From positions 8,805 to 72,804 of IMG/VR virus record IMGVR_UViG_3300012920_000028: 64,000 nucleotides of DNA. One strand, given 5' to 3'. The notes beneath the pieces are model-generated. The model saw only the letters and a program-made list of their open reading frames with translations. It searched no databases and was not told the DNA's origin. The position numbers and the translations under genes are program-made. Each line of letters starts with the position of its first letter. Position 1 is the first letter of the stretch. The stretch is from a virus. Shown here piece by piece: positions 963 through 47,800 of this stretch.

Positions 963-1406
963 GTGAAGTTGGAACTATGGACGGATGGCTCCTGCTTCAA
1001 GGACGACCCGACTGACTCCATCGGTCCCGCGGGCTCTGGAATCGTGTGCGTTGACGTCGATAGCGGCAAGATTCAGTTTCTCCTTGGAGAATACATCGGC
1101 ATTGAATCCAACAACTACGCGGAGTTCCGCGCAATCGAAATCGGGCTTGACGAAGTGTCTCGGCGCTATGAAGTGGACGAATCTTTCGACATTGAGGTCG
1201 TTTCGGATTCGAAAATGGCCGTGAACGTCCTTTCCGGCAACTGGAGCACGAACCTCCCTGAGTACCGAGAAATCACTGCCCGGATTCAGGAACTTGAGGA
1301 AGAACTTGGCGTCGTCATACAGTATTCGTGGGTCAAGGCACATGTAGGCGTTCACTTCAATGAACTGGCGGACTACCTCGCCTACAATTCGGCACGGGGG
1401 GACTGA
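963..1406 (+). CDS. rnhA: Ribonuclease HI
   Basis: WTDGSC, SNNYAEFRAI, VVSDSK and WVKAHVG..FNELADYLA give the catalytic D/E/D/H/D set. GTG start at 963 chosen. Confidence 0.92.
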   Translation: MKLELWTDGSCFKDDPTDSIGPAGSGIVCVDVDSGKIQFLLGEYIGIESNNYAEFRAIEIGLDEVSRRYEVDESFDIEVVSDSKMAVNVLSGNWSTNLPEYREITARIQELEEELGVVIQYSWVKAHVGVHFNELADYLAYNSARGD

Positions 1407-1407
1407 C

Positions 1408-4400
1408 GTGGTTATCGGAGAACCGGAAGAAGTCTTGGAGGAGGAAGACCTTTCCGTCACAGGCTTCTTTTGGTTTGTTCCCTACGATGAAATCCGGCAT
1501 ATGGAGCGTGGTGAGGTCACCTACGACTTCGACTTCCCCTCGCCGCGATTCGTCCCTTCAACGATGCAATCAGCACGCCGTTGGTTCACAACCTCTCCTG
1601 AAGCGGCAGGTCTCCGGACACGTGCCGACCACATGGTCGTGGTCAAGGTGTCGAACATCCCGTTCGACCCGGAGAGGTTCGATGAAGAGAAGGCGGAGGA
1701 TTGGCTTTCAGCAGACATCCGACATACGGGCGAAGAGACAGAACTGGCTGGCTACGTCGTCGAACCATTCCAAGCCACGCTCAAAGTCACGATGAAGAAC
1801 CTCTCATTCTTCAAAGAGACGAAGGAATGGGCGGCTGTTGAGGTGGGAATCCTTTCCCCGGAAGAAATCCGTAGCATGGCGAAGGTCAAGGTCACTGAAG
1901 AGCAAATCTACGCGAGCGACGAGATGTCCTCTCCTGTCGTTGGTGGCGTCGAAGACCTTCGAATGGGAACCTATGCAAAGGACACCCCTTGTGGAACGTG
2001 TGGCCTCACTTGGAACGAGGACTTCTTGAAATCGTGCCCCGGGCACTTCGGCTACATTTCTCTTGAGGTTCCGGTCCCGAATTGGTTCTATCTTGGTGGC
2101 TCGAAGAATCCTTCTCAGCAATCTCCGCTCCTTTACGCTCTCAACCACACTTGCATGCACTGCCAGCGAATCCTGCTGCCTGACTCCAAGGTTGAATTGT
2201 TGGAGCGATATGTGTTCAACGTGCGTAGCATGAACCTTCTGAATACGGCAGGTTATGACCTCGTTCGCGCCGAGGTTCGAACCTTGATGGACGAGCACCA
2301 CGGGGTCAAGAGCAGTGATTCCCGACCGAAGGAGTACGTCTGCCCCCACTGTGAGAAAGTCTCGCCGCAGGTGTCGTTCGCCCTCTCCGCTTTCAGTCGC
2401 TACAAGCACGTGTTCTACCCAACGAACCGTGAATACGACGACGAGAGCGATGATGTCGTCACCTACCCCTACGAGGACGTATTCCGCAGGCTCGAAGACA
2501 TCCCCGAAAGGGATTCGGCCGCACTCGGGTTCAGCGAGGGCTCGGTTCCTTCTCACATGTTCTTCACGGACTTGCCCGTTGCACCCGTGGTCACCCGTCC
2601 GCCTGCAACGACCCCTTCAGGTGCGTATGCTCCGAGTGACCTATCCGAGTTGTATGTGGCGGTCTTGCAGGTCAACAACAACATTCGTCGCCGTCGAACT
2701 GAACTCCGCGAGGACAAGGCGAAGAGGAATGCGATGTCACGTAGCCTGTTCAAAGCAGTGGCTCAGTTGATGACGGGTCAATCAAGTGGAATTGGCTCCG
2801 GAGGGATGAAAATAGGCATGGCCGCCAATGGGGCCATGACTCCTCGCAATCTTCGCGGGGTGTACGACCGCATCAAAGGTGTGGGCAAACAGAAGAACGA
2901 GATGAGGAGGAACGTGCAATCGAAAGTCGACGAGCACGTGGCTTATTCGGTAATCACCCCCGACCCCGCGCTTCAGATTGACGAAATCGGTGTTCCATAC
3001 CCTGTGTGCTTCGAATTGACGCGCCGCATCGAAGTCACCGAAGAGAACTATGACGAGATGCTCTCCTACGTGATGAACGGGGACCAAGAAGCGATTCCGA
3101 AGGGGAAGAAAACGAAGGACTTCGACTTAAGCCGCTACCCCGGTGCGAAGCGTGTGATTCGCGGCAACGGAACGGTGTCTTCACTACTGGAGCCAGCACG
3201 AGATTTCGGAGAGTCAGAACTCGATTTCGCCCTACGCCAAGCGAACTTCTTGGACCGGAAGTCAAACCTTCTGGTTGGGGACATCGTGGAGCGTCACCTT
3301 ATCCCCGGCGACGTTGTTCTCTTCACACGTGCACCTGCCCTTCACCGTCAGAACCTCATGGCTTTCCGTGTCGTCCCGGTCAAGACCCGGAGCCTTTCAT
3401 TCAACCCCTCAGTCTGCATTCCGTTCAATGCGGACTTTGACGGGGACGCCATGAGGATGTACGTTCTCCAGTCTGAGGAAGCAATCGAAGAGGCGCTCGA
3501 AACGATGCGCGTCGAGACACAGATGCTTCACTCTCGCTACGGCCGAACCTTCCTCACGTTCGACCAAGATGAAATCAGCGGCGGCTACCTCTTGACGTTC
3601 AAGAACGAGCCCGAAGCCGGGACACATCCGGAGAAACGGAGCGGATGGGGCTTTGACGACGACGGCTACCCGATTCTCAGTAAGGCACGTGTCCTGAACA
3701 TCCTTCAGGCCGCCTTCTCTCGTGACGAAGAAGGTTCACTCACCTACAGAACACGTTTCCCTCCGCCCATCACCAGCGGCCGATTCAAGGGGTGCTACCG
3801 TGGCCGTGACATCATCTCGATGTTCCTTCCACCGGGAATCAACGCACGCTATGAGAACCGAACCGGACAAGAAATCGTCATTCGGAATAGCGTCATTGGA
3901 CCGGGTGCCCTTGACGACAGGTTCTTCGGAACTAAGGCTGGTCTTCTTGCACCTGCTTTCATCTATCGCTACGGGTGGGAGGAAGGTCACCGCCTTCTTG
4001 CCGAGGTCACGAATGAAATGTCTCGTGTCGTCTTCTCAGCACACGTTGAGTACGGCTTCTCCCTCGGAATCGCTGACATCTCCTTCATTCGACCCGAGTC
4101 AAAGTCGGACAAGGAATACTTCGACTTGGCGGAGAAGGGCTTCAAGAATCAAGTGGACGAGAACGGACGGCCTATTCGGAGTCTGAGCCCTTACGTCTTC
4201 ATTGACGACGCTATGGATATGGTGGAGAGCATCATTCACGACATTGACCTGAAGTTCGAGGCGCGCAACATCGAGGCAATCAAGGACATCGACATTTCTT
4301 TCCTGAACTACGTGAACGAAAAGGGAGAGGAAAAGACCTTTGAGACGTTGAGCATCAACATGAAGGAGTTCGTTAAGGACCCAATTTTCGCGAAAGAAAA

Positions 4401-6186
4401 CGTAGTCCGTGCAATCACCAATGCGTTCAATGATTGGGTCATCGCCTTCATCAAAGCGAACCAAAAACCGACGGACGCTATGAACATCACATTGAACTCC
4501 GGTGGTCGCGGGAACCCGCTCCAACTCCGGCAGATGATTGGCTCGCTCGGGCAGCATCAATTGAACGGGCCGGGTCGTCCGAAGCACGGTTATAGCGCGA
4601 GGAAGGTCCTTTCCTGTTCACGGGACGACATGAACCCACGCGACCGTGGCTTCATCCGCACCTCCTACGCGAGAGGTCACGACCCCGATGGGTATTGGTT
4701 CGCCTCCACGGCCGGTATTCGTTCAACGATGGAATCTTCTCAGGGCGGAATCGCAAAGTCCGGCTACATGGAGCACAAGATGAAGCGGAACCTTGAGCAC
4801 CTCATGGTGGACGACAAGCGTCGGGTCATTGACCTTCGGTCAGGGACAATCGTTTCTCTTTCAGTCGGAGGAGACAATCTGCATGCGTTCCACCCACGCG
4901 GACCCGACAACAGCGACGGCCTCGATTTCGAAATCCAACCACTTCTCCTTGATTTTGAATGCAAACACGGGTTGAGCCTCTATGACTCGTGTGCCGAGTG
5001 CAGCAGCGGCACCCCTAACCTCCTCCCACGTGCCATCCTACCGGACAACATCAAGGCTCAAGTCGAAAAGGCAGTTGAGGGGAGAGAACTTGACGAAGAA
5101 TCGAAGAAGGGCTTCCGTGATTCGTTGCGTTCCTATTACAACACGTGTCTGATTCAAATTGGCGAAATGATTGGTTCCACAGGTGCGGCAAACCTCGGCG
5201 AACCGGCTACTCAGGCGGGACTTCGTGCGTTCCACGGTGGCGGTCAAGGAACGGTTCCGACCGTGGACAGGCTTGTGCAGGTGTTAGAACTCGTGAAAAA
5301 GAAGCAAGAGCAACCGCAAACGACGCTTCTCCTCAAAGATGACTACAACACCCGAGAGAACGCCGAGCGGCTTGCTTCTTTCTGCACGACCGTGAACTTC
5401 GAAGAGGTCATGGAGAAGGTCGAATACAACCCCGAGGAGTTCGAAATCGAAATCACCCTGAACATCGAAAGGCTGGAACTCTTCGAAATTGATGACGAAT
5501 GGGCGCGTCATACGCTCAAGAAGGTGTTCGAATCCGACGGCACTCGGAAGGTGACCTTCTTTGAAAGCCCAATCGCGAAGGTCCGATGCCGAGAAGACGC
5601 ACGTGACCTCCTCATCGCCCGACATATGCTCGGGAACATCCCGCTTTCGGGAATCAATGACTCCCAACTTGCCTTCGTTTATGACGACGGAGAGGGGCAA
5701 TACGGAGTGAGCATTCGTGGACCAATCAAAGGCAGCGATGCGGTGAATATCCCGAAGTTCTGGCAAGACATCGTGGACTTCATGAGTGAATACGTGGACC
5801 TCTCCAAGACCAAGTTCACCGACTCATGGATGGTTTACAACATTTACGGACTCGAAGCATCCCTCAACCATCTGTGCGAATCCATTTACGAGCAAATGAA
5901 CGGAATGGAAGGTGAGAAGGGGATTGGGGAACTGGATTATCGCTACATCCGGGTCATGGCTGACTACATGGGGATTTACGGCGAACCTATCGGACTCAAG
6001 AAATCCGGACATATGGTGAAGTTCAACAAGAGCCTTCTCGCTGCCCTCGGTGGTGAAGACCCGATGCTCGCCCTGCACGGTGCAACGGTCATGGGGAACT
6101 ATGATACGCTCAAGGGTCCGGTTGAGGCTATCGCCGCAGGCAAGCAACTCAACATTGGGGCACACTACCGTCGAAAGACGACATGA
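1408..6186 (+). CDS. rpo1: DNA-directed RNA polymerase largest subunit (Rpo1 A' and A'' in one chain, Rpb1/beta'-like) with N-terminal extension
   Basis: Clamp Zn motifs CGTCG...CPGHFG, CMHC, CPHC. Also VITPDP, RAPALHR, catalytic FNADFDGDAM, bridge helix KSGYMEHKM and trigger loop GEPATQAGLRAFH. GTG start at 1408 chosen. Confidence 0.95.
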   Translation: MVIGEPEEVLEEEDLSVTGFFWFVPYDEIRHMERGEVTYDFDFPSPRFVPSTMQSARRWFTTSPEAAGLRTRADHMVVVKVSNIPFDPERFDEEKAEDWLSADIRHTGEETELAGYVVEPFQATLKVTMKNLSFFKETKEWAAVEVGILSPEEIRSMAKVKVTEEQIYASDEMSSPVVGGVEDLRMGTYAKDTPCGTCGLTWNEDFLKSCPGHFGYISLEVPVPNWFYLGGSKNPSQQSPLLYALNHTCMHCQRILLPDSKVELLERYVFNVRSMNLLNTAGYDLVRAEVRTLMDEHHGVKSSDSRPKEYVCPHCEKVSPQVSFALSAFSRYKHVFYPTNREYDDESDDVVTYPYEDVFRRLEDIPERDSAALGFSEGSVPSHMFFTDLPVAPVVTRPPATTPSGAYAPSDLSELYVAVLQVNNNIRRRRTELREDKAKRNAMSRSLFKAVAQLMTGQSSGIGSGGMKIGMAANGAMTPRNLRGVYDRIKGVGKQKNEMRRNVQSKVDEHVAYSVITPDPALQIDEIGVPYPVCFELTRRIEVTEENYDEMLSYVMNGDQEAIPKGKKTKDFDLSRYPGAKRVIRGNGTVSSLLEPARDFGESELDFALRQANFLDRKSNLLVGDIVERHLIPGDVVLFTRAPALHRQNLMAFRVVPVKTRSLSFNPSVCIPFNADFDGDAMRMYVLQSEEAIEEALETMRVETQMLHSRYGRTFLTFDQDEISGGYLLTFKNEPEAGTHPEKRSGWGFDDDGYPILSKARVLNILQAAFSRDEEGSLTYRTRFPPPITSGRFKGCYRGRDIISMFLPPGINARYENRTGQEIVIRNSVIGPGALDDRFFGTKAGLLAPAFIYRYGWEEGHRLLAEVTNEMSRVVFSAHVEYGFSLGIADISFIRPESKSDKEYFDLAEKGFKNQVDENGRPIRSLSPYVFIDDAMDMVESIIHDIDLKFEARNIEAIKDIDISFLNYVNEKGEEKTFETLSINMKEFVKDPIFAKENVVRAITNAFNDWVIAFIKANQKPTDAMNITLNSGGRGNPLQLRQMIGSLGQHQLNGPGRPKHGYSARKVLSCSRDDMNPRDRGFIRTSYARGHDPDGYWFASTAGIRSTMESSQGGIAKSGYMEHKMKRNLEHLMVDDKRRVIDLRSGTIVSLSVGGDNLHAFHPRGPDNSDGLDFEIQPLLLDFECKHGLSLYDSCAECSSGTPNLLPRAILPDNIKAQVEKAVEGRELDEESKKGFRDSLRSYYNTCLIQIGEMIGSTGAANLGEPATQAGLRAFHGGGQGTVPTVDRLVQVLELVKKKQEQPQTTLLLKDDYNTRENAERLASFCTTVNFEEVMEKVEYNPEEFEIEITLNIERLELFEIDDEWARHTLKKVFESDGTRKVTFFESPIAKVRCREDARDLLIARHMLGNIPLSGINDSQLAFVYDDGEGQYGVSIRGPIKGSDAVNIPKFWQDIVDFMSEYVDLSKTKFTDSWMVYNIYGLEASLNHLCESIYEQMNGMEGEKGIGELDYRYIRVMADYMGIYGEPIGLKKSGHMVKFNKSLLAALGGEDPMLALHGATVMGNYDTLKGPVEAIAAGKQLNIGAHYRRKTT

Positions 6187-8875
6187 GGTAGTGTCGGAAA
6201 CCGGGAGTCAGGAGACGCTGGTCCCACCCGAGAGCATCATAGATGCCCTTTAGCGTCCCGTGAATGTGCGTCTTCGCGAGGGACTCCCAATCAATCGTGT
6301 ACTCCGCAAGTTCCTCTTCACGGCGGAATGCGATACGCCCGTTGCCCGGGATGACCGTCGGCCCGTCCTTGACGATGACCCACTTCACCTTGTCTCGCTT
6401 CGCGTATTCGTCCTCTTCGCTCTTCGCGAGGTACATGTTGTACCATAGCGCCCCCGACGAAAGCCAATAGTGCCCGTAGCACTTGTCGTCTTCGTTGAGG
6501 GTGTCTTGCTTCGGGCACGCGCCACAGTCGCAGACAATAGGCATTCCCCGCCAATCAACATGGTGCGGTAGGTGCTTCCTGAGCGTTTGTGCGGCGGTCA
6601 GTTCCTCAAGGTCAACCTCGCCGTCAAGGACGGCTTTCAGTCGCTTCTTGACCTTCTTCTGCACGACCTTTTCGGGGACCTTGTCGAAGAGGTCCATGAG
6701 AAGTCCGAGTTGTATGTCCGTTCCGAGAGAGGAAGTCGTCGTTCGCTTGGCCTGCATCCCTGACATCTTGAGACGAGCCCACGGTTCTTCTCGCATGTCG
6801 ATGTCGGCGACCTTGAATCCCTTCTTGTCGTCCCACACTTTCCGACCGGCATACATGCCCTTCACGTTGGCGAGGTAAAACCGGTCCATGATGACCTCAA
6901 GGTCAAGCGACATGGCGGTGGAATTGGTCCTCCCCTGCATTTCCTTTGTGATGTCCTTTCCGAGAGCCACCGCTTCGTCATGGACACGCTCGGCTTCCCA
7001 TTCGGAAGGGAAGACCACGAAGATTGAGTCCGTGTGTCCGTAAATGACGCGGAAACCGGCCTTCTCAGCCAACGCCTTCGCCGTGAGAAGGGCTTCACGC
7101 CCCCCAGCGGTGATTGAGGCAGCGACATCGCGGTCGAACCACGCGAACTTGTCGAAGGCCATGATACCGTACATGGACGCGCGCAGCCTCTTCACGCCGA
7201 GTTGCATAGCGTTCCACTTCGTAGCCGCCTCCTTGTCGTTCTTCGCTTCTGCTTCCTTGAGCAATGCCTTGTACTCGTCACGTTGTGTGTTCAAGCGGCG
7301 AACGATGGTAGGCAGGACACCTGTCGTGTCGGTTCGGAAGCGAACGCCACCATGCCCGACGCTATCGGTGGACAGGTGTTCCTGTCCTTCCCTGACTTTC
7401 GTTTCGGGACTGATGTTCTTTGCTTCCATGACGCTTGGGTATAGGCCCGCGTAATCGAGCATCCCGACGTTATCGTGCATACCAGCCGCATTGGTGTAGA
7501 CGTTGTCGTCTTCGGGGTCGCGTTCTTCGGGCTCCTCACCGGGGTGGAGGATGATTGCACCTTGAAGGTCGTCTTCAGCGTCACTCTCCTCACTGTAGGG
7601 GCGATACTTGGGGCGCCACCATGCTTCGCGATAGAACATGACGTTTCCGACACGGGATGCCTTCATGGTCGAGGGAAGTTGGCTACCGATGAGCGTCTGT
7701 TGAACCTTGTAGCCCTTGACGATGTTCCACTTCTCATCGAGCATGACGAGCAGTTCAACGTCGCGGATGTTGTAGCGGAGGAATTCGTCCCACGTGGCAT
7801 CGTAGTCCTTGTCGTACCATCCCGGGCTTGGGTTCTTCCCTTCCTTGAAATTGTCCCACGCTACCGCCTGAAGGCTCAATCCACCGGGCGGGTCTTGGTT
7901 CGTGGAGTCCTTGTACACGCGCTCATAGCACAACATGAGGTCGAGGGTATCAACACCCCGAATGGGGGCGTCAGTCACCTTGTAGCGGTGCCTGTTGCGA
8001 GGGTCCGGGTCAATCATGATTCCATAGGGTGAGAGGGAACCAGCGCCATAAACAGGCCTCGGGAACAGACCGTTCTCGCACTCCCCCGCCATGTCGTTCA
8101 TCAAATGGGGAATCCCGAGGCTTTCCATGCGATGATAAAGCGTCGGAAGGTCATACCCGGCACTGTTCCAGCCGGTCATGACGTCGAAGTCCATGGCGAA
8201 GAACCAATCACCGAATGCCTTCAGCATGTCGTACTCCGTGGTGAAGCGGTGTTCCGTACCCCATTCATGTCTGATGGAAGCCCTCGTCCAATTCGGGTGA
8301 CATCCAAAGGCGGTGTATTCCTTCGTGAAATTGGAGTACGCCGCGATGGAGTTGACCATCTGTGTGTCGTACCAAAGTCCCTCGTGAGTCACGCTCTTCA
8401 GCCACTTCATGCGCTCGGGGTCCGTGTCGCGGAACTGCAAGGCTTCGATGTCGAAATAGCAGACGTGATAGTCGAAGTCTTCGACCTCGATGTCGTTATG
8501 AATGAGGACGGCGTCTTCTTGAGGGAGAGAACCGCCCCACGTTGGCCCATAGTTGCGAAGGAAGAAGGACATGGCTCCACGAGTCACGCACTCGACCTTG
8601 TACAGGGGTTGCTTTTCGATGGACAACCCTTCGGGGGCCACGGAATGAACAAGGTCACTATCGAGGAGGAAGTCAATGGCTTCGCTCGCGTAGTCGAAGT
8701 CAGGCACATTCTTGCCCGGAAGAGCACGGAATGAAGAGGGCTGGATGTAAAACGTGGGGTATTCGTCATAGAAGTCCACAACGCGCACACCGTCCTTACG
8801 GTAGCGAACTGCTACGCGAGAACCGTCTTCCATTCGCCACTTCCCTTGTACCTGCTCGCACACGCTGATGTTCAT
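6149..8875 (-). CDS. polB: Family B DNA polymerase with 3'-5' exonuclease
   Basis: Exo motifs FDIE, GWNSAGYD, YNIRD. Polymerase motifs DYAGLYPS, KRLRASMYG, YGHTDS. ATG at 8875 overlaps the upstream stop. Confidence 0.95.
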   Translation of the reverse strand: MNISVCEQVQGKWRMEDGSRVAVRYRKDGVRVVDFYDEYPTFYIQPSSFRALPGKNVPDFDYASEAIDFLLDSDLVHSVAPEGLSIEKQPLYKVECVTRGAMSFFLRNYGPTWGGSLPQEDAVLIHNDIEVEDFDYHVCYFDIEALQFRDTDPERMKWLKSVTHEGLWYDTQMVNSIAAYSNFTKEYTAFGCHPNWTRASIRHEWGTEHRFTTEYDMLKAFGDWFFAMDFDVMTGWNSAGYDLPTLYHRMESLGIPHLMNDMAGECENGLFPRPVYGAGSLSPYGIMIDPDPRNRHRYKVTDAPIRGVDTLDLMLCYERVYKDSTNQDPPGGLSLQAVAWDNFKEGKNPSPGWYDKDYDATWDEFLRYNIRDVELLVMLDEKWNIVKGYKVQQTLIGSQLPSTMKASRVGNVMFYREAWWRPKYRPYSEESDAEDDLQGAIILHPGEEPEERDPEDDNVYTNAAGMHDNVGMLDYAGLYPSVMEAKNISPETKVREGQEHLSTDSVGHGGVRFRTDTTGVLPTIVRRLNTQRDEYKALLKEAEAKNDKEAATKWNAMQLGVKRLRASMYGIMAFDKFAWFDRDVAASITAGGREALLTAKALAEKAGFRVIYGHTDSIFVVFPSEWEAERVHDEAVALGKDITKEMQGRTNSTAMSLDLEVIMDRFYLANVKGMYAGRKVWDDKKGFKVADIDMREEPWARLKMSGMQAKRTTTSSLGTDIQLGLLMDLFDKVPEKVVQKKVKKRLKAVLDGEVDLEELTAAQTLRKHLPHHVDWRGMPIVCDCGACPKQDTLNEDDKCYGHYWLSSGALWYNMYLAKSEEDEYAKRDKVKWVIVKDGPTVIPGNGRIAFRREEELAEYTIDWESLAKTHIHGTLKGIYDALGWDQRLLTPGFRHYLMSSFDGSVPQC

Positions 8876-9837
8876 AGTACCAACCTCTCTTCCAGCCGGA
8901 CCACGGACCCATTCGCCCGATAGTCGATAACACGGTGATATTGGAGCCACAAGAGCGGTGTGTTGTGGTTCTCAAGGTAAATACGACGAGCCTTCCCATA
9001 TGCGCCCCATTCTTCGACCGACATGCGGTGCTTTTCCGCAAGGAAAGACCGGATTTCTAACGGCGGGATGGTTTCACCAACCGGATAGCGGGAGATGAAG
9101 ACCCATAGTGTCCGGCAAGCCTTGAGGTTCACTACGGAGGTGCTTTCGGACCGTTCTGCGCTATCAAGGGACTTTCTCCACACCGTCAAACGGACTTCCC
9201 CGTCCATCTCAGTGACGTGAAGGTAGCGTTCCTTCTTCTCGCCCCTATGGACAAGACGCGCTCGGTCAAACGGCGTTTCCTCACGCACCTCCGGCTCCGG
9301 TTCGGGGAGCACGACAGGTGTCGGCTTTGGTTCCGCTTTTGGTTTCGGCGCATTGCCGAAAGAGGACAAGACGGATTGTCCGGGCGCGATTTCAGGAACC
9401 TTCTCTTTGGGCGGAGCCAATTCCTTGAGCGCGTCGAGAATGTCCTTCCGCTTGCACTTCCTTACGCACCCGAAGCCACCATCCTCTTTCACTTGTAGGT
9501 GATTCTTTCCGTTTCCGTCAGCCCCTTGCTTCGCACAAGAGGGACATTGCGCGGAATACCAGCCATTCCCTGACTTCCGGAGATTGACGAGGCTCTCCCT
9601 TGCTTCCCATACAGGGTTCCCACCGTCCGCCATGAGGAAAGGGAGAGGTTCACCGGAGTTGTGGGCGTGAAGGAGGACTTCGAGCCTCCCCATTTCCTTC
9701 TCGGTCTCGAACAACACGTGTCCATCTTCGATGCGCTGGTGCCTGAGCGCGTAGTCGGAGCGAACCTTCGAACCAATCAGTTCGAGGTACAGTGAAACGG
9801 GGACTCTCATGGAACCGGAAAGCGAATCATCCGGCAC
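8872..9837 (-). CDS. Protein with primase-type Zn-binding domain, Pro-rich linker and possible C-terminal winged helix
   Basis: AQCPSC...NHLQV...FGCVRKC pattern. Translationally coupled to polB. Confidence 0.55.
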   Translation of the reverse strand: MPDDSLSGSMRVPVSLYLELIGSKVRSDYALRHQRIEDGHVLFETEKEMGRLEVLLHAHNSGEPLPFLMADGGNPVWEARESLVNLRKSGNGWYSAQCPSCAKQGADGNGKNHLQVKEDGGFGCVRKCKRKDILDALKELAPPKEKVPEIAPGQSVLSSFGNAPKPKAEPKPTPVVLPEPEPEVREETPFDRARLVHRGEKKERYLHVTEMDGEVRLTVWRKSLDSAERSESTSVVNLKACRTLWVFISRYPVGETIPPLEIRSFLAEKHRMSVEEWGAYGKARRIYLENHNTPLLWLQYHRVIDYRANGSVVRLEERLVL

Positions 9838-28725: not shown

Positions 28726-30264
28726 TCACTCCCCGAACTCGTCAGGCTCCTTCGCAATGATGATGTTGTCGATGCGCAGGAGGAGCGAAGCCGTCGCTGT
28801 TGCGCTCTCAAGCGCGCTCTTCACCACCTTGAGGGGTTCAACCACGTTCTCTTCCGCCATATCCACCACGCCGCCGGTATAGACGTTCAAACCGGCATTC
28901 TTTGCGCCTTCCGCGTGAGCCTTCCTCAGTTCACGGAGCGTCGCAATTGGCTGAAGTTGTCCACTGTTCTCAGCGAGGGTGAGCGGAATGATTTCGAGAG
29001 CGTCAGCAAAAGCCTCGACCGCGAGGGATTCAAGGCCGCCCACGCTCGCGGCGTAGGTCCGGAGGTGTTGAGCCATTTCGACTTGAGAAGCACCGCCCCC
29101 GGCGAGAACCTTCCCCTCCTTTCGAGCGACGTGCACCACGCCGATAGCGTCGTCCATGGCGCGGCTGATTTCCTCGGCAGTCTGCTGGGTAGGGGCACTG
29201 ACGACGAGAGAAACCGCATTGGCGTTAGGGGTGTCCTTGAGAATGAAGAAGCCACGCTGACCTGCGCTGGCACTCACTTCCTCAATGCTTCCACACGTGC
29301 CGAGGTCTTCGACCTCAAGGTCTTCGAGACCGGAAACGATGAGAGCACCCGTAGCGTCGGCCACAGCCTCAAGATTGGAAGCAGCGCAGCGACGGCACGC
29401 AATGATGCCGTGGCGCGCGAACAGTTCCGCAAGGGCTGGGTTGATGTCCTTTGACGCAAGAACCACGCTTGCTCCGAGGCCGAGAATGTGGTCGGCCATT
29501 CCCTGCAAGAGATTGCGCTGGTTCGCACGGAAGGCCTCAGCGTCCTGCGCCGTGTTGAATTGAAGGTTCGTTCCCTTCGCCATTGCCGGAAGGTCGAGAG
29601 CACCGTCCACGAGCGCGATGGAGGCATTCTCAATGTCCGAAGGCATGGCGTTGTGCATCTTCACCTGACCGATGACAATTCCGTTCGGAGCGTAAGAGTC
29701 CGTGACGGGTGAACCGTAGCGAGGAATGATGTTGATTGAGCCCGGGGAAGCATTCTCCGTCGCCTCCACGCACAGGACTGCGAGATGGTCTTTCGACTCC
29801 TCAGCAGACTTCCCCGTCATGGCGGTCTTCGCCACTTCGAGAAGGTAGTCTTCCGCAGGAAGGGTGAGCGTTTCGGCAACCTCCTGACACTTCTTCAAGG
29901 CCAGATGGTAGCCGCGAACAATGGTCGTCGGGTGGACCTTCTTCGCGATGAGGTCCTCCGCTTGCTTCAGGAGTTCACCTGTGATGACGATTGCTGACGT
30001 CGTTCCGTCGTAGCACTCCTCTTCCTGCGTGCGCGCGACCTCGACCATCATGTGTGCCGTGGCGTGGGTGAAATTGGTTTCCTTGAGAATGGTGGCCCCG
30101 TCGTTCGTCACTACCGTACGACCGCTCCGGTCAACGAGCATCTTGTCCATTCCCATAGGGCCGAGGGTCGAACGGACCAATTCGGCGACAAACTTGCCGA
30201 TTCCGATGTTGACCTCTTGGGCCGTCTGCGTCTTCTGCTGCTTGGCGTCTGTGGCTTGACTCAT
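28726..30264 (-). CDS. Group II chaperonin (thermosome subunit)
   Basis: STLGPMGMDKML, TNDGATIL, YDGTTS, VHPTTI, AGGGA, VVEPLKV, LLRID. Confidence 0.96.
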   Translation of the reverse strand: MSQATDAKQQKTQTAQEVNIGIGKFVAELVRSTLGPMGMDKMLVDRSGRTVVTNDGATILKETNFTHATAHMMVEVARTQEEECYDGTTSAIVITGELLKQAEDLIAKKVHPTTIVRGYHLALKKCQEVAETLTLPAEDYLLEVAKTAMTGKSAEESKDHLAVLCVEATENASPGSINIIPRYGSPVTDSYAPNGIVIGQVKMHNAMPSDIENASIALVDGALDLPAMAKGTNLQFNTAQDAEAFRANQRNLLQGMADHILGLGASVVLASKDINPALAELFARHGIIACRRCAASNLEAVADATGALIVSGLEDLEVEDLGTCGSIEEVSASAGQRGFFILKDTPNANAVSLVVSAPTQQTAEEISRAMDDAIGVVHVARKEGKVLAGGGASQVEMAQHLRTYAASVGGLESLAVEAFADALEIIPLTLAENSGQLQPIATLRELRKAHAEGAKNAGLNVYTGGVVDMAEENVVEPLKVVKSALESATATASLLLRIDNIIIAKEPDEFGE

Positions 30265-31068: not shown

Positions 31069-31671
31069 TCATTCCTCCGGTTTGTTTTCGTTTTTCTTGA
31101 ACCGTGGGAGGCGTTCTTCTTCTTTGGTGGGCACATAGGTGAACGTGCTTTCCTCGGATTGGGATTCCTCACTACCCGGTTCAGGTTGATGCACACGCCT
31201 CTTGGATTTATACCTTTTGTCTTGAAGACGGGATTCCTTCGTGTACTTTTCGTCATGCGCGCGAAGCCCGACGGCTTGCTCGTTGGAGAAGCGAACCTTC
31301 CTTTTGGTCTCCTTGGTTTGGTCCATTGGGCGGTCGAAGCCCATAACCTCGTCCCAAGGGTTGCCGAGACACGGGTTCGTCGCGGCGGTGTGACTCCATT
31401 CACAGGACATACACTTGACGACTACGACGTGCGTCCACGGCTGCGTGTCCCCACGCTGAGAAGTGCGAGCGATTTCGACTGCTCCTACTTCGTGAAACAT
31501 GCGAATGTCGACGTGGCCGCACTTGGGGCAAAACATCGGCTGCTTTCGGGCAGCATCGTCGAACAGTTGCTCGCCTTCCGGGTTGATTTTCTTTGCAGCG
31601 ATGTCGGCGCAAATGGGGCACCGCTTCTTCACTTCCCATTCATTTGCTCGGATTCTTTCGTCTTGCGCCAT
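31069..31671 (-). CDS. Zn-finger protein with charged tail
   Basis: CPIC, CPKC, CMSC. Confidence 0.65.
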   Translation of the reverse strand: MAQDERIRANEWEVKKRCPICADIAAKKINPEGEQLFDDAARKQPMFCPKCGHVDIRMFHEVGAVEIARTSQRGDTQPWTHVVVVKCMSCEWSHTAATNPCLGNPWDEVMGFDRPMDQTKETKRKVRFSNEQAVGLRAHDEKYTKESRLQDKRYKSKRRVHQPEPGSEESQSEESTFTYVPTKEEERLPRFKKNENKPEE

Positions 31672-44897: not shown

Positions 44898-47800
44898 TCA
44901 CCACTCGAACATGTTGAGGAACTCGTCCTCGTCTTCCTCCACCCAGTCGTGCCTTGAGGAGTTTTCCTTGATGAGACCCGCTTTGACCGCAAGACTGTAG
45001 TCGCCCATTTTCTTCCCGTCTTTCATGACGGTGTTTCCGAGCGTGACGAAGGAATAGACGCGGCCGGACGCCCATTGGTGCTGCTGAACACCGGGACGGT
45101 GACCGGTGCGCCACGCCGCCAAACCCTTGTCGTACACCTTCTCAAGAATCGCCTTGTCGACACCTGTCGTCTTCGACATGCGGGTGAGGAAGGAGCCCTT
45201 CCCCTTCAAGGGACCATACAAGCGAGCGAACTTGGTTCGGTACTTGGAAGGCGTGGTTTTCATTCCCCGCGCCGTAGCCTTGATGTCCGATTTCCAGAAT
45301 TCGTACGCTTTCGGGTCGTTCACGTCGTACTTGTAGCCTTGGTCAATCTCGTACTCGGCAATCGCCTTCTCGACAGATGTCAGGCCTTTCAGGTACTTGG
45401 AAGGAATCTTCTTTCCACCGGGAGTACGGGGGTTCGGGCGAGGAAGATTCGACAGTTGCGTAATCGAAATGGTTTGGGCCGTGAGGGCTGAAGGGTAGGA
45501 AACGTCAGAAGGGAACCATGGGTTCGGGCGAGGAAGGTTCTCCTTCATCCAAGCATACGTCTTAGGTGCCTTCTCCTTGAGTTTGGCGCGGCCTTCGCCG
45601 ATACCGGGGATGAAATAGACGCGGGAATACAGGGGGGCGCGAAGCCTGATTTCATCGAGGTCCTCCTGCATTTTACGGATGTTCTCGGCGTATTCCTTGT
45701 CTGTGTAGTACGCTCCGGGCTTCGTGTGCGGCGCTTTCTTGGTTCGGAAACCAATGGTGTTCTTCTCGTCGCGGATTTTCGCTTGACCGCCCTTTCCCTC
45801 ACGCTTGTCGTTGTCGCCGAAGACGAAGAGGACCTCGGGGTGGTTCCGGACATATGTCGGAGTGATTTTCTTTGGTGGGTTGTCTTTCACTTCGCTTATG
45901 TTTTTCGCAGGTATTGTTTCTGGTGTGGTCCATTCCATACCGTTCAATGTGAGGTCAAGTGTTTCGGGAACCGATATTTCAAGTAAGGCAAAATCCTCAT
46001 GGTTGGGCATCTTGGTTTTCCAAAACAATGCTTCTTCTTTTTTTGAAGCAAGGTAAATTCTTGGTTTGAATGATTGGATGTATTCTTCAAACTTCATGTC
46101 CGGCGCTATCAAGTTTTTTTCTTTAGCAAATTCGTACAATTGGCCTTTCAATGCTCTTGTAAGTGGGCCATGTTGTGGAACAAGGCCATTTTTCTTGATG
46201 CTTGGTAGGTGTTCTTTCAATGTGAGATGGTACAGTTTTTTCGGCATCGGCAACTCTTCACCTCTTACGCTTTTGGCTGGGTTCTTCTTCGGACCCATCA
46301 ACACAGGCACTTTGCCGTACTTGCGCTTCTCCGTCATCCCAATCCACGGAACGTCGGGGCACGGAGGCATTCGGGAGATGTCGTGCTTGCGCGCCCAGCG
46401 CCACGGGTCGTGTCCCCACACCCACAGGCCGAGGAGGCGCCGTGAGACTTGGTTCTGCGTCTTCTGCTCGCGCACGAGGGGGCCTTTCTGGTCAGCGTTG
46501 TAGGGGAACGCGCCGTGGCGCTTCACGAAGCGCACCTGACGCTTGCACCAATCCCAATCGGTTTCTCCGTCGAGTGGGTCATCGGACGGGCCAGTCCATT
46601 CCTTCATGGCCTTCTCATAGTAGTTCTCGATGATGCGTGGCCCGATTTTGATGTAGTCCTTCGGGCCGGTCAGGCCGAGTTTGGCGCGCATTTTGAGGAT
46701 GCGACGGCCGCTCACACGCCCACTCTTGATGCCCTGAGCGTCTGCTTCTTCTTTGGAGAGACCGGCCTTCTTCCCGAGGGGAGAATCAAGGAACGCCTTC
46801 AGTTCCTTGTTCTTCATGTTGATGAGATGAACCCACTCCTCGAACCACTCGAAGAGTTCCTTTGGTGGGTTTTCAATTTCCCACGGCTCTTCCCCCGGTT
46901 CCCATTCCAAGTGGTTTTCCATCTGGTGTCTTGTCCATACAGGGTACTTCTTCTTTGGTTCCCACACTCGATAGGGCTTTTGAGCCGGGTCAGACCATGG
47001 CTTAAGGTTCCCACCACCTGCCGGGGAATAGAAGGAGCGACGGTACTTTTCTCGGGCCTGCTGGTCGAGGAAAAAGAACTCCACCCGTTCGACCTTCAGG
47101 TTCACGTCATCATCAGGGTTGAGTTCTGATTCTGTGGGGCCGAAGGAGAAGTTGTTCCGGAGGGTCGAAATCCAATTGATGTCTTGGAAGGGGAGGCGTG
47201 CTACGATGAGGACTTGGTTGGCGTGAGGGAAAAACTGCGCGACCGAAGTTCGTGTTTGAACGAACATGTCTGCTTTCTTCTTATCGGTGGTCCATGCACT
47301 GCCAAGTCCGTGCGTCTGCCATGACTCTTCGAGTTCTTCGCTCGAAGCGGGAGACCAAATCGCACGGTAGATGGGTATGGAGTCCCTCGAACCATACAGC
47401 GATTTCCAATGTTCAAACAAGTGTTCGAGGAACCTTTTGCCGGAAGAGCCGGTGTAGCCCCAGCGGCGGAAGTTCCTCTTCATTTCCTTTTTGTTTTCTC
47501 TTTCCACGAAACGCAGCAGACCTTCCAAACCACTTGATGTAAGGACGTCCTTCAATCGGATTCCTTCAGGTGGGTTCCCCATCGGGAGGGCAGAAGAGTC
47601 AAGCAAAGCGGAGAACCTTTCGGCTTGAGCATTTGGAACAAGGACATGTGTCCGGTTCTCAACCGGAGAGCGAATCGTCCCTTCAGGGAGGTAGGAGTCG
47701 TTGAAGTACGAAGGGATGGCGAAAGCACTGTAGTCGCCACTATCCGCCATGTTGTTGAAGGAAATGATGCGGCGGCGTAGTTCCCTGTAATCCCTTTCAG

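Follow-up and report, generated by a model that had tools for sequence, protein, structure and literature searches.

We analysed a 64,000-nucleotide stretch of viral DNA (hereafter the window; positions 8,805 to 72,804 of IMGVR_UViG_3300012920_000028, a 72.8-kb IMG/VR virus record with an estimated completeness of 52%), in which a minus-strand open reading frame (ORF) of 1896 amino acids (aa), P0001, at positions 44898-50588, encodes a modular polyprotein. One of its modules is an AT-rich cassette bounded by Asn-Pro (NP) dipeptides. In the account that we consider probable, this cassette of about 134 aa has an ADP-ribosyltransferase (ART)-type fold and was acquired laterally into one variable slot of an array whose modules are exchanged at NP motifs. 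Comparison with related polyproteins indicates that whole modules come and go or replace one another, the breakpoints falling at NP motifs that mark every module boundary in roughly the form [V/P/A/I/T]-[L/R/K/F/M]-x-Asn-Pro-[P/R/K/S/G], and the NP itself looks like a junction signal acting at the protein level.

Composition of the cassette and a near-identical copy elsewhere

The block stands out by composition. In 150-nucleotide windows, the GC content is 0.36-0.42 over about 45850-46250 against 0.53-0.67 in the flanks, and a two-change-point fit gives 0.39 for 45852-46241 and 0.567 outside. An initial annotation of this DNA had described 45880-46275 as AT-rich between GC-rich flanks, had placed the switch at the motifs KKNP and KDNP with the reading frame preserved, and had proposed sliding-window GC and codon usage as a check. 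That check, run here, agrees with it: the drops in GC and in third-position GC (GC3) match the NP-bounded block. KKNP (aa 1434-1437) and KDNP (aa 1568-1571) both lie in the continuous frame of the 1896-aa ORF, and the third-position fit, with a GC3 of 0.41 for aa 1437-1579 against 0.73 elsewhere in the ORF, has 2-lnL support intervals (aa 1431-1466 and aa 1566-1582) that each contain one of the two NP sites. Composition by itself locates the switches to about 10-30 codons only; comparative data sharpen the borders.

The 11-mer TTTGGTGGGTT, encoding N-P-P-K, was also found where it had been reported, at 45871 and 46861, and occurs exactly twice (0.05 occurrences expected; two or more in 0 of 100 shuffles). 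This repeat is less striking than the shuffle test implies, because both copies encode the same four residues in the same gene with preferred codons. The ORF as a whole contains 14 NP dipeptides where 5.6 are expected (shuffle p = 0.001).

A search with HMMER, using the 137-aa segment against 1.84 billion representative proteins, returned seven proteins, of which P0004 was rejected as a eukaryote-like coiled-coil false positive. In the best match, P0002 (1512 aa), the cassette segment is 92% identical (BLASTP); the similarity begins at '...K-N-N-P-A-R-S' and stops at '...K-D-N-P-P'. The order of modules in P0002 (kinase, NP, cassette, NPP, DUF3140-like) differs from that in the window, and identity to the window drops to 36-37% in its guanylate-kinase and DUF3140-like parts (36-40% for P0002 and L009 together). 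The metagenome contig L009 encodes a version of P0002, 89% identical, and the cassettes of P0002 and L009 show 87-92% amino acid identity to ours. Between the NP codons, the DNA of the window and of L009 agrees at 384 of 411 nucleotides (nt; 93.4%), against 32 of 64 and 22 of 78 in the flanks under a forced alignment. Downstream, the identity breaks off at most 3 nt past AAC-CCN-CC; upstream, its rise is spread over some 10-25 nt before AAC-CCA.

Between window and L009, the cassette has a dN/dS of 0.46 at a dS of 0.12, and therefore both copies are under purifying selection, as working coding sequence in both hosts. The GC3 of the cassette compared with the rest of the gene is 0.42 vs 0.73 in the window and 0.45 vs 0.49 in L009. 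Because the cassette values (0.42-0.45) are near that of the L009 gene, a lower-GC, L009-like lineage is the more plausible donor side, although the direction of transfer is unproven. Taken with the absence of the module from the close relatives P0010 and P0011 (see below), the compositional contrast and the near-identical DNA copy in an otherwise distant protein lead us to regard the cassette as foreign and recently acquired by lateral transfer, in agreement with the initial annotation.

Modules of this kind also occur outside polyproteins. P0008 is a stand-alone homologue of 131 aa spanning module residues 9-130, and cultured phages, among them those of Rhizobium and Caulobacter, encode DUF7831, the module next to the cassette, as a gene of its own (about 110 aa). 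A word-indexed protein search gave no near-length homologue of the cassette, and no relative was found in the viral contig collection. The L009 polyprotein ends where the window has the linker and NP1436. The ORF that follows has a junction of its own, '...RHADLINP/MAPGYQSYGW...' (here and below, a slash marks the point after NP), and the same module is internal to the polyprotein of locus L003. At the other loci, this L003-type module in the ORF downstream of the L009 polyprotein was the sole match outside a polyprotein ORF (a self-match of the ORF upstream in L009 aside); a match of 24 residues to a junction of L004 precedes it. In addition, no spare copies of the relatives' modules were found elsewhere in the window. 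Between the L009 polyprotein and the next NP-containing ORF there is a zinc-ribbon-like ORF of 78 aa with two CxxC pairs (L009 positions 8876-9112, plus strand), which overlaps that next ORF in another frame.

The initial annotation predicted that alleles lacking the module would have a single junction in its place. We searched with aa 111-313 for longer proteins and obtained 107 (357-2000 aa, the size range searched), the window's own protein being P0009. Among them, P0010 (1404 aa) matches the window at aa 1-1008 (95.5% identity), 1240-1433 (97.9%) and 1689-1896 (96.2%) and is without the module at aa 1006-1240, the AT-rich cassette and DUF7831. In place of these three modules, P0010 has single NP junctions, '...ALPMGNP/PKELFEW...' and '...YGKVEVKMNP/WFPSD...', and all four ends of its breaks (aa 1008 and 1240, aa 1433 and 1689) lie at most 3 aa from a window NP. 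P0011 and P0017 have a different 134-aa cassette after the same '...KVEVKMNP', and their module at aa 1006-1240 is a diverged version; in the unchanged shared blocks, P0010 and P0011 are 93-98% identical to the window. The slot cassette of P0011 was considered as a distant homologue of ours (FHGS / YIYVAD / FEYFTTEP) and rejected, with an hhalign probability of 0.08 and nothing in Pfam.

Contigs of the runs X2, X4, X8 and X15, from four studies, were compared with the window over 44900-47600. In a contig of X8, position 45867 is joined to 46315, with 978 other letters replacing the 447 skipped, and in a second one 45524 is joined to 46318 with 718 letters between. Joints from 46863 to 47569 occur in X2, X4 and X15; they skip 705 nt, and 8 letters fit both sides, the shorter sides measuring 30-32 letters. 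The shared letters, GGTGGGTT, are the reverse complement of AAC-CCA-CC and stand at 46864-46871 and 47569-47576. Contigs of related populations also end or branch at 45867-45881, the downstream junction of the cassette, and at both copies (45422-45435 and 45524-45534) of a 21-nt direct repeat encoding NLPRPNP (45430-45450 and 45520-45540, 20 of 21 letters identical). Behind 45875, a 30-letter loose end in X4 runs, by hand translation, from YGKVEVKMNP in frame into PKKITP; the same letters stand before 46312 as loose ends in X4, X15 and X2. Positions 45901-46264 have no cover in X4 and X15 and low-depth pieces about 90% alike in X2, and 46902-47538 have no cover in any of the runs, missing cover not being evidence. 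The prediction is thus confirmed at the protein level by the single NP junctions of P0010. P0011 and the X8 joint are further evidence of alleles without the module, and the X4 loose end, as weaker evidence, has the NPPK form.

The Asn-Pro junction across the polyprotein family

Across the family, NP accompanies the ends of exchanged blocks. In seven polyproteins (loci L002-L008 and the window), 46 of the 105 merged ends of BLASTP homology blocks lie at most 5 aa from an NP, where 8.2 are expected (maximum 20 in 5000 randomisation trials), and in the 107 proteins this holds for 996 of 3325 (mean 294 and maximum 340 in 300 trials). The dipeptide itself occurs 1334 times in the 107 proteins against 399.6 expected (3.3-fold). 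It is enriched more than 2-fold in every one of them, and among the 400 dipeptides its enrichment is exceeded only by those of the rare WC and CC.

Cut at NP, the 107 proteins yield 1003 pieces of at least 50 aa, which belong to 117 families (53 of them singletons) and make up 93 distinct arrangements; the idea of the polyprotein as an array of cassettes is supported by this variety. The order of the N-terminal, JAMM-like, HD-like and kinase modules is the same throughout, the constant core being composed of the N-terminal module, the JAMM-like module, the HD-like module, a module of no assigned function and the guanylate kinase. The guanylate-kinase module is then followed by 35 different families. 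The DUF3140-like module has 23 families before it and 26 after it, and DUF5824 has 24 before it. The AT-rich cassette is a singleton among the 1003 modules. Precomputed Pfam labels on the relatives include glutaredoxin, SET, GNAT, PAP2, NDK, YbjQ and AAA.

Is the junction recognised in the DNA or in the peptide? At 96 NP sites, Asn is encoded by AAC (53) or AAT (43) and Pro by CCA (48), CCC (17), CCG (17) or CCT (14), proportions close to those of the genes in general, and synonymous differences separate homologous junctions of L006 and L007. Of 76 non-redundant contexts, 55 have V/P/A/I/T at position -3 and 55 have L/R/K/F/M at position -2 (background 0.29), and 48 have P/R/S/K/G at position +1 (background 0.33); the same positions around Asn without a following Pro, taken as a control, are at background level. 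The p-values of these contexts are optimistic because the residue classes were chosen post hoc. The residue after NP at the 96 sites is most often Pro (31), followed by Arg (14), Ser (8), Lys (8) and Gly (6). Around the core modules, 104-107 of the 107 proteins retain the NP sites despite the fixed order of these modules. The terminal module of the window ends in '...AGLIKENSS', with NS for NP, and its counterparts in L006 and L007, which continue with another module, end in '...AGLIKENP/'.

Because the codons vary, the amino acid context is extended and NP is kept in the unshuffled core, we take NP to be a selected, peptide-level junction signal. That breakpoints fall at NP would follow from selection for intact modules just as from microhomology. 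Of the proposal that foreign domains are captured by in-frame insertion at NP-encoding microhomologies, we therefore retain the NP-bounded, in-frame module; microhomology as the mechanism is not established, given the codon variation, the amino acid context and the NP sites of the core.

Twelve family members are short. One of them (P0075) ends just past an NP, and most of the others end in unique tails or inside modules, probably through frameshifts or fragmentation. The L008 polyprotein is split into overlapping ORFs (2883-4733 and 4702-8625; 617 and 1308 aa) inside the equivalent of window aa 570-708; a programmed shift may account for this split, or else a frameshift or an error of sequencing.

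Functions of the modules and competing readings of the junction

Over the cassette segment ELPMPKKLYHLTLKEHLPSIKKNGLVP, Pfam profiles give sub-threshold matches to DUF7002 (E 0.0095) and PTS_2-RNA (PF01885; E 0.21, 12.1 bits against a cut-off of 26), the PTS_2-RNA alignment covering profile positions 97-122 only, out of 177. Nine aligned homologues also give sub-threshold matches, six to DUF7002, two to PTS_2-RNA (best E 0.03) and one to DarT. With an AF2 model of the cassette (pLDDT 70.9) as Foldseek query, the top 17 among the matches listed are all Tpt1/KptA (E 0.011-0.37, TM 0.40-0.45, root-mean-square deviation 6-11 Å), followed by DarT1. Eight of the nine homologues in the alignment have 'YHxT', and all have I29, G33 and E84. 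Look-alike clusters in the ESM Atlas (scores 0.92-0.93, 133-144 shared features), which we treat as leads only, are labelled PARP (16% of members) or Arr-ms (65%) or bear the automatically assigned name 'putative ADP-ribosyltransferase'. This evidence points to a domain of the ART superfamily near the Tpt1, DarT and Arr branches. The cassette has in common with Tpt1/KptA and DarT the N-terminal 'hYHxT...L..I...GL' strand-helix element. However, Tpt1 is a two-lobed protein of about 180 aa (the catalytic tetrad of Tpt1/KptA being Arg-His-Arg-Arg), whereas the cassette has 134 aa and is without the N-terminal substrate-binding lobe. Because of its sub-threshold score and the absent lobe, we do not count it as a Tpt1/KptA member; from the initial label 'KptA-like', a loose resemblance at the level of the fold survives, all Tpt1/KptA matches being below threshold. 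The cassette may act as an NAD+-dependent modifying enzyme during infection.

Domains related to the cassette were also seen in tandem. P0003, P0005 and P0006 have two or three consecutive domains of about 120 aa (LYHxxLKExLPSIxxKGLIP...RIYFA...YEDPE...WTYTHIP), each copy preceded by a conserved 'GWGWY' region. P0007 (2063 aa), an unrelated giant multi-domain protein, has several 'LYHxT...GL' ART-like domains, and its apparent inter-domain motif is a different one (variants of F/H-N-L/F-S-x-K-K-Y-A), which suggests that junction motifs may be a general feature of giant multi-domain proteins.

The module at aa 111-313 is 47-60% identical among six loci. An invariant Glu (in GESYGW) and HTHPSKDEPS..S.DD are found in all six aligned relatives, with a spacing that differs from the canonical JAMM/MPN+ metal-binding motif, E...HxHx(7)Sx(2)D. 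The AF2 model has a pLDDT of 86.9, and its top Foldseek matches are mostly JAMM/MPN+ deubiquitinases, namely CSN5, AMSH/STAMBPL1, Rpn11, BRCC36 and Sst2 (E 0.008-0.1, TM about 0.3). All 107 family members have the module, since they were collected by a search with it. We regard it as a candidate metallopeptidase, which might be a cis-acting processing protease or an anti-defence enzyme.

Asn-Pro is known from several places where one polypeptide becomes two, namely the NPTH of FlhB/YscU, the reovirus outer-capsid protein and the NPGP of 2A peptides. NPTH occurs at none of the 14 NP sites of the window, and NPGP, the end of the 2A/StopGo motif D(V/I)ExNPGP, at one (aa 335), with NPGS in L004, L006, L007 and L008; judged by their sequence, the NP sites do not fit mechanisms of the 2A type or the FlhB/YscU type. 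Self-cleaving Asn-Pro sites need a specific folded environment, whereas the junction contexts of the window are diverse linkers. The reading we prefer, if tentatively, is that NP is a proteolytic site at which the modules would be released as separate proteins. Recombinants would survive only if joined at junctions, a few shared NP(P) bases possibly helping. Possible, if more doubtful, is the wider conjecture that uncultured marine double-stranded DNA virus-like elements, as a widespread group, express a large and rapidly changing set of accessory enzymes as one polyprotein cut at a junction signal not described before, x-[L/R/K]-x-Asn-Pro, perhaps by its own JAMM-like module. Such a gene would be integron-like at the protein level, because each junction would serve for processing and would also be a safe place to recombine; it could take up any domain flanked by Asn-Pro, and that domain would need neither promoter nor start codon to be expressed and released.

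A number of observations weigh against these proposals. Compared with the closest alleles, the window has its upstream breakpoint at aa 1425-1433, some 10 aa short of NP1436; it is only approximately at the NP because the linker tail of the DUF3140-like module has two variants among the relatives ('...VPVLMGPKKNP' or '...VEVKMNP'), so that 'exactly at NP' holds downstream. The window's own junctions are seen in no independent sample, only run X1, possibly the source, having nearly all of its words. The block-end statistics come from related, non-independent sequences, and the fold model of the cassette is mediocre. The JAMM-like module has no Pfam match, and a profile search against sequences of solved structures gave chance-level hits (E at least 0.16); its assignment comes from the motif and from Foldseek matches that are weak (E at least 0.008). 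Characterised JAMM enzymes cut after Gly-Gly tails, and we know of no protease of x-Asn-Pro-x specificity. For RadC-type JAB domains in polyvalent proteins, a nuclease activity has been argued (Iyer, Burroughs, Anand, de Souza and Aravind 2017, PMC5512222).

Could the NP codons instead act as DNA, with NP(P) microhomologies (AACCCACC and similar) as the recombination substrate and a peptide without function? The 705-nt joint with its eight shared bases in X2, X4 and X15 would agree with this, as would the 11-mer at two junctions, the use of AAC-CCA at six of the eight window NP sites from aa 898 onward, the end of the L009 identity so close after AAC CCN CC and the direct repeat encoding NLPRPNP around a 30-aa mini-module. 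We nevertheless find it improbable: both Asn codons and all four Pro codons are in use, the L006 and L007 junctions are synonymous variants, the -3, -2 and +1 context is conserved as amino acids, and NP is retained around a core that is never rearranged and lost after the terminal module. Moreover, an indel between junctions encoding the same peptide shows some microhomology under any mechanism. As the main alternative, NP may be an uncleaved, domain-capping linker or an Asn-Pro-Pro pause site, which would give each module time to fold ahead of the next, within one giant polyvalent protein. Pro follows NP in 31 of 96 sites and Pro-Pro bonds form slowly, and no known protease is specific for the site. 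Polyvalent proteins of phages and plasmids can act or be packaged uncleaved (PMC5512222). This alternative is still rather unlikely in our judgement, since the -3/-2 context resembles a recognition site more than a flexible linker, the modules work whatever their order and, in other viruses, as genes of their own, and a conserved peptidase-like module is present in every family member.

Two further explanations concern the cassette itself. Its low GC could reflect the amino acid composition or function of a native domain, the module being rich in Lys, Glu and Leu. However, it is at synonymous third positions that GC falls (GC3 0.41-0.42 vs 0.73), the L009 copy is 93.4% identical in DNA within a protein otherwise 36-40% identical, and the module, a singleton in the family, is absent from alleles with 95.5-97.9% identity in the flanking blocks; the fit, the copy and the module-less alleles effectively refute this reading, to which we give almost no credence. 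That the module is an assembly chimera of a metagenomic contig also seems most improbable. Metagenome graphs do branch at every junction, and nearly all words of the stretch are confined to the possible source run, X1. Yet the insertion is in frame and runs from NP junction to NP junction, the same module stands in frame between NP sites in the independent contig L009 and in P0002, the words shared at junctions, 8-11 nt long, do not reach the k-mer length of assemblers, and the identical 1896-aa protein, P0009, is recorded with two member sequences on a 124-kb contig.

Known systems, positions of the features and neighbouring genes

The nearest known parallel is with the polyvalent proteins of phages and conjugative elements, mosaic proteins of many unrelated domains (2-15) for which autoproteolytic release has been proposed (PMC5512222). 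Like the ORF of the window, they combine many unrelated enzymatic domains in one virus-encoded polypeptide; mosaic architectures are common to both, the family studied here showing 93 arrangements in 107 proteins, and so is a peptidase or JAB-type domain, here the putative JAMM-like one (PMC5512222). The recurrent Asn-Pro junctions are a difference: the word 'linker' has no occurrence in the text of that paper, and its available part describes no junction motif (PMC5512222). The domain set also differs, with a guanylate kinase, HD, DUF3140, DUF7831 and DUF5824 here, and 'guanylate kinase', 'KptA' and 'Tpt1' are without occurrence in the paper (PMC5512222). So do the layout, with its fixed core and variable array, and the archaeal or eukaryote-type replication and transcription genes of the window's element.

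Polymorphic toxins and other cassette systems likewise have a constant N-terminus, recombining C-terminal modules and population-level polymorphism of one slot, as here (PMC5512222). However, they have one terminal toxin, whereas the modules here are serial and exchanged at several internal junctions (PMC5512222). The window also differs in having neither immunity genes nor silent cassettes, no spare module copies having been found. RNA viruses, and large DNA viruses with processed precursors, encode a protease that cuts their polyproteins. Independent proteins strung along one ORF with a short recurring site between them, and an embedded protease-like domain, are shared with these systems, but the cleavage here is inferred only; their polyproteins supply a core replicase or structural set, whereas the modules of the window are accessory and hypervariable.

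In the main texts covered by our literature search, there was no description of Asn-Pro-delimited polyproteins in DNA viruses, and 'DUF5824' had no occurrence. New with respect to the known systems are the junction motif, the fixed core with a variable array, the turnover at the level of alleles, the transfer of a cassette between polyprotein families and the archaeal or eukaryote-type element that carries them. Domain turnover and processing in polyvalent proteins have so far been mostly conjecture, and turnover is visible here at near-allelic resolution. If NP is a cleavage site, it would define a protease specificity that is new and show that a DNA virus, infecting an abundant but uncultured marine host, expresses proteins by way of a polyprotein. 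If uncleaved, NP would still be a simple rule for parsing hundreds of unannotated giant ORFs, with 117 families of which most are of unknown function. In this way it offers a handle on the accessory enzymes deployed (ADP-ribosyltransferase-like, kinase, HD, GNAT, SET, glutaredoxin and others).

The positions of the features are given in the table below. The ORF has at least five Pfam-recognisable domains and 12 modules of at least 50 aa. The DUF3140 match (aa 1251-1303) is below threshold.

Table. Features of the polyprotein gene, in window positions, with the evidence for each
Feature	Positions	Strand	Evidence
Modular polyprotein ORF P0001, 14 NP dipeptides	44898..50588	-	ORF, Pfam domains
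AT-rich cassette, aa P1437-N1570, putative ADP-ribosyltransferase superfamily	45879..46280	-	GC3 0.42 vs 0.73; L009 copy; absent from P0010/P0011; weak ART-type matches
NP1436/1437, codons AAC CCA, upstream junction of cassette	46278..46283	-	L009 DNA identity starts here, within ~10-25 nt
NP1570/1571, codons AAC CCA, downstream junction of cassette	45876..45881	-	L009 identity stops at most 3 nt past NPP codons
11-mer TTTGGTGGGTT, copy 1, N-P-P-K on minus strand	45871..45881	+	Within 18/21 direct repeat (family D18)
11-mer, copy 2, at junction NP1240	46861..46871	+	Its GGTGGGTT recurs at 47569-47576, junction NP1005
DUF3140-like module, aa 1241-1436, directly upstream of cassette	46281..46868	-	Pfam PF11338, E 3.9e-5, 24.4 bits, cut-off 25
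DUF7831 module, aa 1571-1689	45522..45878	-	Pfam aa 1574-1683, E 1.5e-32; absent from P0010, P0011
Mini-module, 30 aa, aa 1690-1719	45432..45521	-	21-nt direct repeat (family D15) on both sides
DUF5824 module, terminal, aa 1720-1896	44901..45431	-	Pfam aa 1729-1852, E 2.7e-22
Variable module, aa 1006-1240	46869..47573	-	Absent from P0010; contigs of three runs join across
JAMM/MPN+-like module, aa 111-313, most conserved	49650..50258	-	Alignment, AF2 model, weak Foldseek matches
Guanylate-kinase module, aa 709-898, ends constant core	47895..48464	-	Pfam PF00625, E 4.9e-21; aa 716-877, E 1e-19
HD-like module, aa 336-569	48882..49583	-	Pfam HD aa 427-474, E 0.0017, sub-cut-off; PF01966 precomputed on several relatives

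In the variable module at aa 1006-1240, Pfam gives a match to Multiubiquitin that is far below threshold (E 0.035), which is intriguing beside a JAMM-like module.

The neighbouring genes place the polyprotein in an element with information-processing genes of its own. An Rpb1-like RNA polymerase subunit of 1608 aa is encoded by a single ORF (1360-6186, plus strand; Pfam Rpb1 domains 1-5), followed by a family B DNA polymerase (6149-8950, minus strand; DNA_pol_B) and, further on, a thermosome-type chaperonin (28726-30264, minus strand; Cpn60_TCP1). The sequences most similar to the DNA polymerase are from haloarchaeal tailed viruses (23-25% identity); the thermosome matches are mostly archaeal (31-51% identity), from many phyla, and indicate no single host. 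Among 20 large neighbouring ORFs tested in the window, no structural protein (capsid, portal or terminase) was recognised, and 10 large neighbouring ORFs compared with PHROG gave no structural matches, only exonuclease-type families, all on one ORF. No tRNA genes were found in the window. We describe the element as an uncultured marine virus-like element with replication and transcription genes of archaeal or eukaryote type. Philosof et al. (2017, PMC5434244) left open the nature of magrovirus-like contigs, their 'group D', that encode a DNA polymerase B, a thermosome and an RNA polymerase A of archaeal type and are without the morphogenetic block. The window resembles them in its gene content, which is the same, and may belong with them (PMC5434244); a polyprotein has no occurrence in the available part of that paper (PMC5434244).

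Finally, the polyprotein has possible counterparts close by. Two giant minus-strand ORFs, at 58106-61687 and 50560-53967 (1193 and 1135 aa), are enriched in NP, with 9 against 3.3 and 5 against 1.9 expected. A small ORF at 31069-31671 is also NP-rich (3 against 0.5), most other ORFs of the window being at expectation. The two giant ORFs have no match in Pfam or PHROG except for a ligase C-terminal match below the cut-off. They may be further NP-delimited polyproteins. Contexts resembling the junctions described above are seen in them, for instance ...TRRNP/AMS and ...LAKKNP/GG.

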